A stretch of 64,000 nucleotides of DNA, from IMG/VR virus record IMGVR_UViG_3300027736_002225; one strand, given 5' to 3'. The position numbers were made by a program, and so were the translations under genes. The stretch comes from a virus. The notes below the pieces were generated by a model, which was given only the letters and a program-made list of their open reading frames with translations, did not search any database and was not told where the DNA came from. Positions 15,218 through 18,923 of this stretch are shown one piece after another; position 1 is the first letter of the stretch, and each line of letters opens with the position of its first letter.

Positions 15218-15292
15218 TGGATGCGGGTGATGGATTCGCACCACCGACCTCTGGATTATGAGTCCAGCGCGCTACTACTGCGCCAACCCGCA
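15218..15292 (-). tRNA. tRNA with CAT anticodon (Met, initiator-like)
   Basis: Acceptor TGCGGGT/ACCCGCA, D stem GCGC/GCGC, anticodon arm CTGGA-CTCATAA-TCCAG, T arm GGTGG-TGCGAAT-CCATC, encoded CCA. Confidence 0.9.
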
Positions 15293-16365: not shown

Positions 16366-16875
16366 TTACAGATTTTCTTCTGTAAGAAATTGAGGCTTGC
16401 TAGATTTTTTTGCAGGTTTTACTGCAACTTCTACCTCATCTTTCACATCAATTTTCTTTGGTTTCTTGTGCTCAGGAATAATACGCTCAAGAGCAATCTT
16501 TAGCATACCATTAATTAAAGCAGCATCTTTAATTTCAATTTGGTCGTTAAGAGCAAATGTTCTTGTGAAATTACGTGAAGCGATTCCTTTGTACAACCAC
16601 TCTAGTGCGTCGTTGTCCTCAGCTGCATTGCCTTTGATAACGAGTTTATCGTCAACAAATTCAATTTCGATTTCTTGTTTAGAAAATCCAGCAACAGCCA
16701 TTTCGATAACATATTTGTTCTCGTCTGTTTTCTTAATGTTGTATGGAGGATAGCTGGGAATGTTTTTAGTAATGTCATCATGAATTTGCGCCATTCGAGT
16801 AAATTGATTGTCAAAACCAACAAAAAATTTATCAAAGTCCTTAAAGCCAGGACCGAATACTGATAGATGTGTCAT
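16366..16875 (-). CDS. hsp20: small heat-shock protein (Hsp20/IbpA-like)
   Basis: YPPYNI, MAVAGF, YKGIASRNFTRTF, NGMLKIAL, PEHKKPKKI. Confidence 0.95.
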   Translation of the reverse strand: MTHLSVFGPGFKDFDKFFVGFDNQFTRMAQIHDDITKNIPSYPPYNIKKTDENKYVIEMAVAGFSKQEIEIEFVDDKLVIKGNAAEDNDALEWLYKGIASRNFTRTFALNDQIEIKDAALINGMLKIALERIIPEHKKPKKIDVKDEVEVAVKPAKKSSKPQFLTEENL

Positions 16876-16876
16876 A

Positions 16877-17098
16877 TTAATCTCCCTTTTTTGTAATGCC
16901 AGTAATTGTATTTGCAAATGTTTCTGTAGCAACGGTCATAACGTCATTAGCAGACTTAGCAATTTGTTTTGTAAAGACACGTTGTGCCTCAACGAAATCA
17001 ACTAAAGGTTTAAGAAGGGATTCTTCCTTAACTGTTTGTTTGAGGAAGTTAATTTTGGCGTTTTGAATTGAATCAATAGCCATGTTTGAATAAAACAT
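16877..17098 (-). CDS. 73-aa helical protein (phasin-like?)
   Basis: AGGAG SD; amphipathic helical composition; lies directly before hsp20. Confidence 0.6.
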   Translation of the reverse strand: MFYSNMAIDSIQNAKINFLKQTVKEESLLKPLVDFVEAQRVFTKQIAKSANDVMTVATETFANTITGITKKGD

Positions 17099-17105
17099 AT
17101 AGTTT

Positions 17106-17120
17106 CTCCTAATAAGCGAG
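17106..17120 (-). promoter_or_regulatory. ROSE-like RNA thermometer hairpin
   Basis: CTCGCT-TATT-AGGAG: U(U/C)GCU motif opposite the SD, upstream of the hsp20 operon. Confidence 0.55.
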
Positions 17121-17134
17121 TGTTTTAATAATGT

Positions 17135-17349
17135 GCTACCCCGAAGGCGTAGCGTTTGTTCCTGCTTACTTTATACAGGGCCAACTAACGAGTGGCAGTG
17201 AAATATCTCGGACGCCTTATACCGTAGCATCAAACAGCCCTAAGGTGGGTACCTTGAAGAACGGATACGCCAGGGAATCCGCCGTGTTATTAGTGTGCGT
17301 TTTAACTTGTGGCGTAGGTCGCACCCCCTGCCATCCCATCCCGGGGATA
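17135..17349 (-). ncRNA. GC-rich multi-pseudoknot structured RNA
   Basis: Several hairpins and H-type pseudoknots plus a cUUCGg hairpin, starting just after a late promoter. Confidence 0.6.
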
Positions 17350-17353
17350 AAAT

Positions 17354-17361
17354 TATTTATA
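17354..17361 (-). promoter_or_regulatory. T4-type late promoter
   Basis: TATAAATA. Confidence 0.65.
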
Positions 17362-17680
17362 CAGTAAACGAACTACCGCATCCACAAGTATGCTTAGCAT
17401 TTGGATTTGTTATAACAAATTCCTTTGACATAAAAGAACCTTTATAGTCAATGACAGCCCCTGTTAAGTATTGCATACTAATAGCATCTATTAGTAATTT
17501 AAAATTGTCAAGCGGTATTTCAAAATCATCTTCATTTTTTACATGATCTAACGTAAACCCATAATTAAATCCTGAGCAGCCACCACCTTGGACAAAAGTT
17601 CTAAGACAAGCCTCGGGATTGTCTTCTTCAATTAATATGTCTAGTATTTTAGACTTTGCAGCATCTGTTACTGTAATCAT
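17357..17680 (-). CDS. erpA: A-type Fe-S carrier (ErpA/IscA, HesB family)
   Basis: GGGCSGFNYGF, NPNAKHTCGCGSSF. Confidence 0.9.
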   Translation of the reverse strand: MITVTDAAKSKILDILIEEDNPEACLRTFVQGGGCSGFNYGFTLDHVKNEDDFEIPLDNFKLLIDAISMQYLTGAVIDYKGSFMSKEFVITNPNAKHTCGCGSSFTV

Positions 17681-18035
17681 GGATCGCTGCCTTTATAGCA
17701 TCTTCTGCTAGAATTGAACAATGTATTTTAACTGGAGGGAGGGCTAGCTCTTTTGCAATTTGTGAGTTTTTGATGTTAGCAGCATCATTAATATGCATAC
17801 CCTTAACCCACTCAGTAACCAACGACGAACTCGCGATTGCTGAACCACATCCATATGTCTTGAAACGAGCATCTCTAATAAAACCATTATCATCCACTTT
17901 TATTTGTAATTTCATTACATCGCCGCAAGCCGGTGCACCGACCATTCCCGTTCCTATACCGGATTCGTTTTTATCAAAGCTTCCAACGTTTCTTGGATTT
18001 TCGTAATGATCGAGAACAGTTGTTGAATATGACAT
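17649..18035 (-). CDS. iscU: Fe-S cluster scaffold IscU
   Basis: DHYENPRNVG, APACGD, GCGSAIAS, LPPVKIHC. Confidence 0.95.
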   Translation of the reverse strand: MSYSTTVLDHYENPRNVGSFDKNESGIGTGMVGAPACGDVMKLQIKVDDNGFIRDARFKTYGCGSAIASSSLVTEWVKGMHINDAANIKNSQIAKELALPPVKIHCSILAEDAIKAAIHDYSNRCCKV

Positions 18036-18040
18036 ATAGT

Positions 18041-18048
18041 TATTTATA
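18041..18048 (-). promoter_or_regulatory. T4-type late promoter
   Basis: TATAAATA a few nt upstream of the iscU ATG. Confidence 0.6.
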
Positions 18049-18055
18049 CGGATTA

Positions 18056-18484
18056 TTAGTCCGTAGTTTGCTTTTTCTTGCCAATATTGTATTTTGTTTG
18101 TAAAGACCATTCATGTTTGTCTTTAAAAGCAATTACTTTAATCTGCGATAATGGAGCAAGTTGTTGAAACAATTCTGCTTTTATAACTTTTACTAAACCC
18201 CAATCTATTAGCAATTTAGCAATTGTATTACGTCGCTCCAGATCATTATCCGTTAGATCGGCAGATTTGCCATCTAACGCAAACAATTCTTTAAAGTGTA
18301 CAATAAAATATCTGCCCTGTTTATGCAGAATATGACACGATTGATATAGCACCTTATCTTTTCGTGATGCCACGCCAATACGTGTGAGTGTTTCTCGGAC
18401 TTTTAAAAAGTCGTCCGGTTGAGTTAAGGTTACTTCTAATGGATTATAACCAGGAAAATCAATGTGAAAAATATCTTCAGCCAT
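18056..18484 (-). CDS. regA: translational repressor RegA
   Basis: DDFLKVRETLTRIG, LYQSCHILHKQGRYFIVHFKE. Confidence 0.95.
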   Translation of the reverse strand: MAEDIFHIDFPGYNPLEVTLTQPDDFLKVRETLTRIGVASRKDKVLYQSCHILHKQGRYFIVHFKELFALDGKSADLTDNDLERRNTIAKLLIDWGLVKVIKAELFQQLAPLSQIKVIAFKDKHEWSLQTKYNIGKKKQTTD

Positions 18485-18923
18485 TCCTACCACCTTTTAT
18501 TAGTTTTATTCTTAAATAATCTAATTTATTTTTATCAAAGAGTGGGAGTACTTGGCGTGCTTTTTCTGTGCTATATCCATAGTATTCCTTTATCACTTCG
18601 ATCGCTTCAATTTTCTCAGCCTTAATCCATTTATTGAATCTTTTTTTGGGCCTAATTATATTTATTAAAAACGAATTTTGAAGCTTTTTATCGAGATGAG
18701 GACGGGAATTCATCTCATTTGCTGGAATTACTGTGTCGTGACCGTATGAAAGTCCTTTATTAATGATAAACGGATTATATTGTTTCTCAGACCAATCGTC
18801 AACTATTAAATTATCCTTAGAATAATGAATAGCATTAATAAAATCGAAAGGCGATATTGCTGGCGCCTTATAGGGCGTTACTGTTATTTCTTCTTTTGGC
18901 TTACCTAAAAAATCTAAACTCAT
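18477..18923 (-). CDS. 62: clamp loader small subunit (gp62)
   Basis: YNPFIINKGLS, KEYYGYS; synteny with gp44/regA. Confidence 0.9.
   Translation of the reverse strand: MSLDFLGKPKEEITVTPYKAPAISPFDFINAIHYSKDNLIVDDWSEKQYNPFIINKGLSYGHDTVIPANEMNSRPHLDKKLQNSFLINIIRPKKRFNKWIKAEKIEAIEVIKEYYGYSTEKARQVLPLFDKNKLDYLRIKLIKGGRNG

Follow-up and report, generated by a model that had tools for sequence, protein, structure and literature searches.

Chains of coaxially stacked H-type pseudoknots occur in the upstream pseudoknot domain of the tobamovirus 3′ UTR and in PK1-PK4 of tmRNA. In the leader of T4 gene 32 mRNA, an H-type pseudoknot is the nucleation site for a regulatory protein, and in the E. coli ompA leader a 5′-terminal stem-loop protects the message against 5′-end-dependent attack by RNase E. 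Type III antitoxin RNAs (ToxI-like) are tandem direct repeats of a 34-45-nt unit with a ToxN/AbiQ-type endoribonuclease encoded next to them. The Pseudomonas ibpA ROSE-like thermometers (ROSE_3, RF02523) combine a stable first hairpin with a weak Shine-Dalgarno (SD) hairpin containing a bulged G, upstream of a gene for an IbpA-type small heat-shock protein. To our knowledge, phage-borne RNA thermometers are barely documented, and we know of no structured RNA family described for the leader position between regA and hsp20.

The RNA described here is encoded in a 64-kb stretch of viral DNA, the whole of which was analysed and which is referred to as the window. Like the tobamovirus and tmRNA chains, it consists of linker-free pseudoknots that could stack as a rod and are individually replaceable, but it has no sequence relation to them and lies at the 5′ end or between the cistrons of a phage mRNA. 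It resembles the T4 gene 32 leader in that the mRNA leader of a T4-type phage carries an H-type pseudoknot at its 5′ end, whereas it has no sequence similarity to that leader, precedes a different gene, contains several knots and has no known protein partner. As in the ompA leader, only a few nucleotides separate the predicted 5′ end from the first structure; stabilisers of the ompA type, however, are simple hairpins free of sequence constraint, whereas the present RNA combines pseudoknots with invariant loops and is also found internally, immediately behind stop codons. The tandem repeats of type III antitoxins are not found, the modules differing in sequence and length, and the neighbouring genes encode IscA, NifU, RegA, a 73-aa ORF product and Hsp20 rather than an endoribonuclease. 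With the Pseudomonas ROSE-like elements, the locus shares a stable first hairpin (hairpin E), the weak SD hairpin, the bulged G and the IbpA-type gene. It differs from ROSE_3 in being phage-borne and driven by a late promoter, in scoring 12.7 bits against a cut-off of 43 and in having an E hairpin that is often followed by a U-run; the up to four additional upstream modules found here, pseudoknots included, are without counterpart in ROSE elements. What is new in the present analysis are the hsp20-less and siphovirus-like contexts of the RNA, the tests of copy number and absence, and the full combinatorics of its modules.

Gene order, composition and coding potential

The gene content of the 64-kb window identifies a T4-like phage as its source. 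On the minus strand the order is gp44, gp62, RegA, NifU, IscA, the pseudoknot RNA, the 73-aa ORF, Hsp20 and, further on, tRNA-Met (Table 1). The closest cultured relatives by gp44 (approximately 58-62% identity) are Methylophilales phage Melnitz, Stenotrophomonas phage DLP_6, Pelagibacter phage Mosig and cyanomyoviruses, and the four relatives whose database records were checked are filed under Kyanoviridae. An insertion of NifU and IscA after regA sets the window, together with a small group of loci, apart from most relatives, in which regA stands directly beside the RNA. The 73-aa ORF has no significant Pfam or PHROG match and is present in a minority of the loci that carry the 91-nt core of the RNA (approximately 34 of 156). 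In two of these loci (L154 and L217), the hsp20 gene behind the 73-aa ORF has a UUGCU...AGGAG pairing of its own.

Table 1. Positions of the genes and RNA elements at the locus, with the core copy of a siphovirus-like genome in the last line
Feature	Position	Strand	Remarks
regA, translational repressor	18056-18493	-	Pfam Translat_reg (PF01818), 4.8e-48
NifU-like Fe-S cluster assembly gene	17649-18110	-	between regA and the RNA
IscA/HesB-like Fe-S cluster assembly gene	17357-17680	-	stop codon 17357-17359
Late-promoter-type box TATAAATA	17354-17361	-	from sequence; overlaps IscA stop codon
5′-terminal hairpin AUCC-CCG-GGAU, then conserved GGGA	17338-17348	-	from sequence
Module A, H-type pseudoknot	17295-17337	-	stem GGC-AGG/CCU-AC-GCC, 17332-17311
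Module B, hairpin GGCGGAU/AUCCGUU	17260-17283	-	10-nt loop; alignment A7
P1 hairpin CCC-ACCUUA-GGG	17238-17249	-	nearly invariant; one UA and one UG variant
Pseudoknot C, stem CUGU/ACGG, loop GAUGCU pairing with GGCGUC	17211-17237	-	100% paired in 78 copies
Pseudoknot D, CGAG/CUCG crossing GCCA/UGGC	17180-17210	-	plus a covarying A-U pair closing UAUU
Pc hairpin CCUGU/GCAGG	17161-17179	-	conserved loop AUAAAGUAA; 4/5 pairs changed on both sides
Hairpin E, GCUAC(G)CC-UUCG-GGGUAGC, then AU-rich sequence	17135-17153	-	first hairpin of ROSE-like unit
ROSE-like SD hairpin CUC(G)CU-UAUU-AGGAG	17106-17120	-	just 3′ of 17361-17135; bulged G
73-aa ORF	16877-17098	-	first cistron after leader; start codon 17098-17096
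hsp20, IbpA-type small heat-shock protein	16366-16875	-	Pfam HSP20, 6.7e-19
tRNA-Met	15218-15292		Rfam 15 match at gathering threshold
Core in G007	L312:8809-8898	-	between 949-aa late gene and tiny ORFs

The original prediction described a structured RNA of consecutive pseudoknots between a late promoter and the hsp20 operon, and this description holds in both respects: the RNA starts right after the promoter box with the hsp20 unit downstream, and the helices of modules A-D pair in relatives, with covariation in A, B and D. The actual synteny extends beyond the hsp20-only description and reads regA-RNA-hsp20. In 137 of the 156 core-bearing loci, regA lies at most 400 nt upstream of the core, hsp20 lies downstream of it in approximately 140, and regA within 400 nt upstream is combined with hsp20 within 900 nt downstream in 128. 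The region was also correctly described as richer in GC than the genome, with approximately 48% GC in 17361-17135 and approximately 34% around it (0.475-0.485 at 17100-17399 vs. 0.31-0.38 in the flanks). The accompanying statement that it contains no credible ORF is literally incorrect, as a 78-aa ORF on the plus strand (17131-17367) covers the whole RNA region, but it is correct as regards coding, the frame not being conserved and being broken by 1-nt indels in homologues of 88-95% identity (L003 and L004). A 40-aa ORF on the minus strand was likewise rejected as a gene, on account of indels in relatives and the pattern of G-U pairs.

Four helix positions carry UG in 62, 78, 77, and 65 of 78 core copies, respectively, and because such G-U pairs would be A-C mismatches on the other strand, the RNA is assigned to the minus strand, in the same direction as the genes. 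Minimum free energy folding restricted to nested structures is no better than shuffles for either strand (z about 0); this is uninformative because pseudoknots are not modelled, and support for the fold is therefore comparative, drawn from relatives, and not energetic. By this comparative evidence, the minus strand of 17361-17135 is shown to encode a conserved, modular, non-coding RNA.

Pairing and covariation in the core and its upstream modules

The core occupies 91 nt of the minus strand (17250-17160; covariance-model match in the window of 114 bits) and consists of the P1 hairpin, pseudoknot C, pseudoknot D and the Pc hairpin. The 156 core-bearing loci that were collected gave 78 distinct core sequences, which make up alignment A2 with the pairing as originally predicted plus one extra pair. 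In this alignment, 99.4% of the pair cells are formed vs. 88.6% in column shuffles, none of 500 of which reaches the observed value, and controls with slid partners are only 31-43% paired. The covariation sought among homologues is present, with 12 core pairs (210 cells) changed on both sides.

Interleaved helices with compensatory changes, the mark of an H-type pseudoknot, are found in D, where helices Pa and Pb both covary, and in the sister type of module A; C is compatible with such a knot and nearly invariant. In helix Pa of D, pair 50-69 is UA in 42 copies, GC in 19, AU in 7, GU in 7, and CG in 1, and all five pairs of Pb, the strands of which interleave with Pa, have double changes. The pair closing the 4-nt loop (52-58) is CG in 41 copies, UA in 31, and AU in 6, and G51 has two possible partners, C68 or C59. 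The predicted crossing of CGAG/CUCG and GCCA/UGGC is thus matched by two covarying helices in the 78 copies, and the structure of pseudoknot D is, on comparative grounds, well proven. The predicted module C and CCUG/CAGG hairpin also stand: among the 78 copies, C is pairable throughout and nearly invariant, and four of the five Pc pairs covary. Changes in C are one-sided only, and P1 and C together show one double change and otherwise a few switches between U-G and C-G or between G-C and G-U. Because P1 and C are nearly invariant though completely pairable, the data are consistent with their fold rather than a demonstration of it.

Approximately 40 of the 91 core positions are invariant, including both the P1 loop (ACCUUA) and the Pc loop as well as nearly the whole of C, while the neighbouring helices covary freely. 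The core sequence has no linker between P1 and P2, between the 3′ strand of C and Pa, or between Pb and Pc, and since its helices abut in this manner, the core could form a single continuous rod by stacking. Kissing of the P1 loop (ACCUUA) with UAAGGU in the Pc loop was considered and is not supported, as it shows no covariation and is mismatched in 49 of the 78 copies.

Upstream of the core, an AUCYC..GGGAUGGGA motif with varying loops stands at the head of module A in many loci. In the window, the loop of module A (GUGCG, 17324-17320) pairs with CGCAC (17299-17295). This type of module A is represented by an 18-mer found in only six contigs of IMG/VR. The stem and the loop contact predicted for it are borne out by one compensating change in a relative (L108), from GUGCG/CGCAC to AUGCG/CGCAU, and by the sister type of A (alignment A4), a covarying H-type pseudoknot that is 99.2% paired and has six pairs with double changes. 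Further types of A have the same loop-to-downstream pairing as judged by eye, and the short type (alignment A5), with subtypes out of structural register, was also judged by eye only. Similarly, the predicted hairpin B is upheld by alignment A7, in which it is 98% paired and three of seven pairs are changed on both sides. The layout of a CCC-6 nt-GGG hairpin, which was said to be common to A and C, is true of C only, as A opens with AUCC-CCG-GGAU.

Occurrence, leader architecture and genomic contexts

The core is present in more than 150 phage contigs of IMG/VR; the exact 23-mer of module C occurs in 109 IMG/VR stretches, and a looser core pattern gives at least 118 matches. In a search of the whole window with Rfam 15 at the gathering threshold, only the tRNA was found, and at E up to 10 the segment 16900-17600 gave only a chance-level Yfr21 match and a weak ROSE_3 match. 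No known riboswitch, ribozyme, sRNA or manA/wcaG family of Rfam 15 matches the region, and the novelty put forward for the pseudoknot modules stands in that they match no described family. Twelve variant loci searched at the Rfam threshold contain only tRNAs and one GOLLD RNA elsewhere. This GOLLD RNA (RF02032, 179.7 bits, 3′ end cut off) lies at L218:4804-5219 (+), overlapping a tRNA match, in the contig of a related lake phage and approximately 3 kb downstream of its core; many loci have tRNA clusters after the hsp20 region, as the window has its tRNA-Met.

No match was found by BLASTN in 50,697 GenBank phage records, E. coli genomes and plasmids, and in 185,579 bacterial and archaeal genomes two pattern scans produced 0 and 7 matches. 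The seven are best read as chance, three fitting the model over the pattern only and four not at all; one of them (L320) lies in GC-rich sequence with the look of coding DNA. Literature searches found no paper on this pseudoknot RNA. One copy is present in each of five complete phage genomes of 160-170 kb and one in the 64-kb window, and these searches and counts show the core to be phage-only and single-copy. Locus frequencies are biased because the loci were mostly collected through the core's own sequence; among the best 80 regA loci gathered without this bias, none carries the canonical core and three carry a variant.

Of 101 distinct loci, approximately three-quarters have a NATAAATA box directly before the first module. 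If the core is the first module, the box ends 5-12 nt ahead of the first core helix; in the other promoter loci, it directly precedes module A, module B or another hairpin; and in loci without a box, the core starts 1-6 nt after the upstream stop codon. In every case the core points in the same direction as the genes on either side. Late transcription of the T4 type begins about 6 nt past the promoter box, so that the RNA would begin with a helix.

Leaders differ in the modules that they carry. The element is present in L004, L003 and G001, whereas in L005, which has an IscA of 96% identity, TATAAATAA leads almost straight to hairpin E; as read from these sequences, the pseudoknot element is an insertion/deletion polymorphism among relatives. 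The combinations comprise no module (L005), A only (L177, L236 and L241), core only, A with core, B with core, A with B and core (the window), and arrangements with extra modules (L184 and L214). Module A of L177 is of the window type and stands without a core, and the leaders of the closest RegA relatives (L232-L234) have a P1-like hairpin, D and Pc but no C. A leader of promoter, hairpin E and ROSE-like unit without pseudoknots precedes hsp20 in Pelagibacter phage Mosig, phage C48C1 and many marine contigs, from which it follows that A-D are cassettes between promoter and thermometer. Comparison of the leaders shows modules A-D to be optional cassettes in one freshwater clade of T4-like (Kyanoviridae-like) phages.

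The core also occurs without hsp20. In L127 and L196, it stands 3 nt after regA and runs into an operon with DUF4422, dCMP deaminase, MazG ... DNA polymerase; the two cores show compensatory differences (GACA/UGUC vs. GCCA/UGGU), and the DUF4422 proteins have diverged considerably. L124 and L188, which lack hsp20, again have the core behind regA, and a consensus sigma70-type promoter follows it; in L124, a U-run comes after Pc, and tRNA genes lie downstream of the promoter. The promoters directly after the core in L124 (1676-1760, -) and L188 read TTGACA, 17 nt, TACAAT and TTGACA, 17 nt, TAGAAT, respectively. The core of L131 is that of record G007, a siphovirus-like genome of 26,078 bp (92% complete) that lacks hsp20 and has genes for major head, tape-measure, tail and terminase proteins. 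It scores 101.6 bits there; a 949-aa late gene ends 1 nt upstream of it, and the next ribosome-binding site follows 10 nt downstream. One tiny ORF beside this copy encodes a coiled coil with a hydrophobic C-terminal tail and is possibly lysis-related. L161 is a second copy of this kind, with compensatory differences. Since the core is kept with compensatory changes in loci without hsp20 and in a 26-kb genome, it constitutes an autonomous, horizontally spread RNA domain. The comparison of these loci shows a core that is, by its compensatory changes, selected independently of hsp20 and of the thermometer and that has crossed between unrelated phage types.

The frequent proximity of regA, within 400 nt upstream in 137 of 156 loci and kept when hsp20 is lost, would suit a role as operator or decoy of a phage protein, most obviously RegA, for the binding of which single-stranded UAA-type triplets would be exposed in the Pc loop. 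Two UAA-like triplets are contained in the consensus of this loop, AUWARGUAA, and SELEX with RB69 RegA is reported to have yielded UAA triplets (Dean, Allen & Miller 2005). Against such an operator, the synteny of regA and hsp20 is also found in relatives without any pseudoknot module, and in the window two genes lie between regA and the RNA. In addition, the surroundings of the core in the 26-kb phage G007 yielded no regA homologue, the ten largest proteins of this phage have no translation-repressor PHROG match, and known RegA sites overlap start codons, whereas the Pc loop lies at least 60 nt upstream of one. A role as RegA operator is, from these comparisons, very improbable.

The original prediction had also raised, as a speculation, an array of antitoxin mimics. 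A phage-only, single-copy, pseudoknot-built RNA that has passed between unrelated phages would suit an anti-defence RNA decoy or a type III antitoxin mimic, but the modules are not repeats of one unit, being unrelated in sequence and varying in number between phages, and no ToxN, AbiE or AbiF type gene, and hence no ToxN-type nuclease, lies nearby. The array claim fails on these points, and a decoy is further at odds with the tie of the RNA to one syntenic position as an mRNA leader; the explanation as a whole is scarcely credible.

The ROSE-like unit and the possible roles of the pseudoknot chain

A ROSE-like unit of two hairpins stands directly upstream of hsp20 in most loci, and the region originally delimited (17135-17361) covers only its first hairpin, E. 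The consensus of hairpin E is NNNAY(G)CC-UUCG-GGGUNNN, and its stems covary in 76 leaders, so that this predicted hairpin, too, is supported visibly across loci. In most leaders, U(C/U)GCU follows 8-14 nt after E and is in turn followed by AGGAG and the start codon; the SD-pairing strand is UCGCU in 60 of the 76 leaders and UUGCU in 16. As in ROSE elements, U(U/C)GCU pairs with the SD sequence AGGA around a bulged G in the 3′-most hairpin, and the unit lies in the 5′ UTR of a small heat-shock gene, in the window before the 73-aa ORF and hsp20. Nearest-neighbour prediction gives the 32-nt SD segment a folding energy of -4.2 kcal/mol at 30°C and -1.9 kcal/mol at 42°C; the energy of approximately -2 to -3 kcal/mol at 37-42°C refers to the whole 32 nt and at 37°C includes a second weak hairpin at the AUG. 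This second predicted hairpin, AAAC...GUUU (17093-17105, -), lies over the AUG of the 73-aa ORF at up to 37°C and is lost at 42°C. The ROSE_3 match (17156-17093, E = 9) spans hairpin E and the SD hairpin, and the Rfam gathering score of ROSE, ROSE_2 or ROSE_3 is not reached in the window. The ROSE-like unit is predicted to mask the ribosome-binding site of the 73-aa ORF/hsp20 operon.

The GAUGCU/GGCGUC helix of C (17211-17216) resembles the stem of E (17146-17151), and marine leaders have GAUGCC...GGGUC; this likeness could stem from a duplication or point to alternative pairing. The 3′ strand of C (AGGCGU) is complementary to the 5′ arm of E (AYGCCU), which suggests an alternative pairing and a possible switch, one without covariation support because both partners are invariant.

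With slightly less than even confidence, we favour the reading that the pseudoknot chain acts in cis, as a compact 5′-terminal or intercistronic domain by which the fate of the message downstream is determined. A stability or translation domain acting in cis is preferred because the structure starts at the 5′ end, has almost no single-stranded linkers, precedes different downstream genes and is built of interchangeable modules. The chain would protect the message against 5′-end-dependent or single-strand-specific RNases and would insulate the thermometer, its near-invariant loops would probably dock a conserved host or phage factor, and temperature control would be left to the separate ROSE-like hairpin. 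Two observations weigh against this reading. A plain stabiliser would not need approximately 40 invariant nucleotides, a pattern more typical of ligand-binding, protein-binding or catalytic RNAs, and hairpin E with its U-run could end the transcript and release a separate small RNA.

Hairpin E is terminator-like in many relatives, and at least five U occur in the 9 nt after it in 46 of the 76 leaders. A stand-alone late small RNA of 130-230 nt, extending from the late promoter to E (or to Pc with its U-run), would act in trans, and hsp20 would be expressed by read-through. Such an RNA would be in keeping with the succession of promoter, structured RNA and CUUCGG hairpin with U-run in these leaders, with the order of Pc, U-run and separate sigma70-like promoter in L124, and with the retention of the core in loci without hsp20. 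However, E belongs to the basal hsp20 leader even where the modules are missing (L005, Mosig and C48C1), the tail after E in the window has only 4 U in 9 nt, and the cores of L127, L196 and L131 run into the next ribosome-binding site with no terminator. As far as these sequences indicate, a separate small RNA is unlikely.

The invariance of the core bears on a further explanation, in which it would be a new riboswitch aptamer or self-cleaving ribozyme, with C as the pocket or active site and its state relayed to E or to the ribosome-binding site. Approximately 40 of 91 positions held invariant beside freely covarying helices, two pseudoknots with conserved loops and the possible alternative pairing of AGGCGU with AYGCCU would all fit such an element, and the order of aptamer, terminator-like hairpin and ribosome-binding site would fit a riboswitch. 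No known class is matched, however, even at E up to 10, and C, the presumed centre of the element, is dropped altogether in the L232-L234 leaders. The downstream genes (hsp20, the 73-aa ORF, DUF4422 and tiny basic ORFs) point to no single ligand, and the alternative pairing shows no covariation, its partners both being invariant. A riboswitch or ribozyme in this strict sense appears distinctly unlikely. More broadly, the core could represent a new class of autonomous mobile phage RNA domain, of riboswitch, ribozyme or decoy type, that controls whichever cistron follows, its invariant C and hairpin loops binding a small molecule or a conserved host factor or self-cleaving; this is possible, if doubtful.

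In complexity and conservation, the core is on a par with riboswitch or ribozyme motifs, having two pseudoknots, approximately 40 invariant bases and rich covariation, and it would be a candidate for a new family in RNA catalogues. Only uncultured aquatic phages carry it, and it passes between phages of unrelated types. As a stabiliser alone, it would be a compact, portable module for the protection of mRNA; should it bind a ligand or a host factor, it would reveal a new means by which phages control late gene expression.
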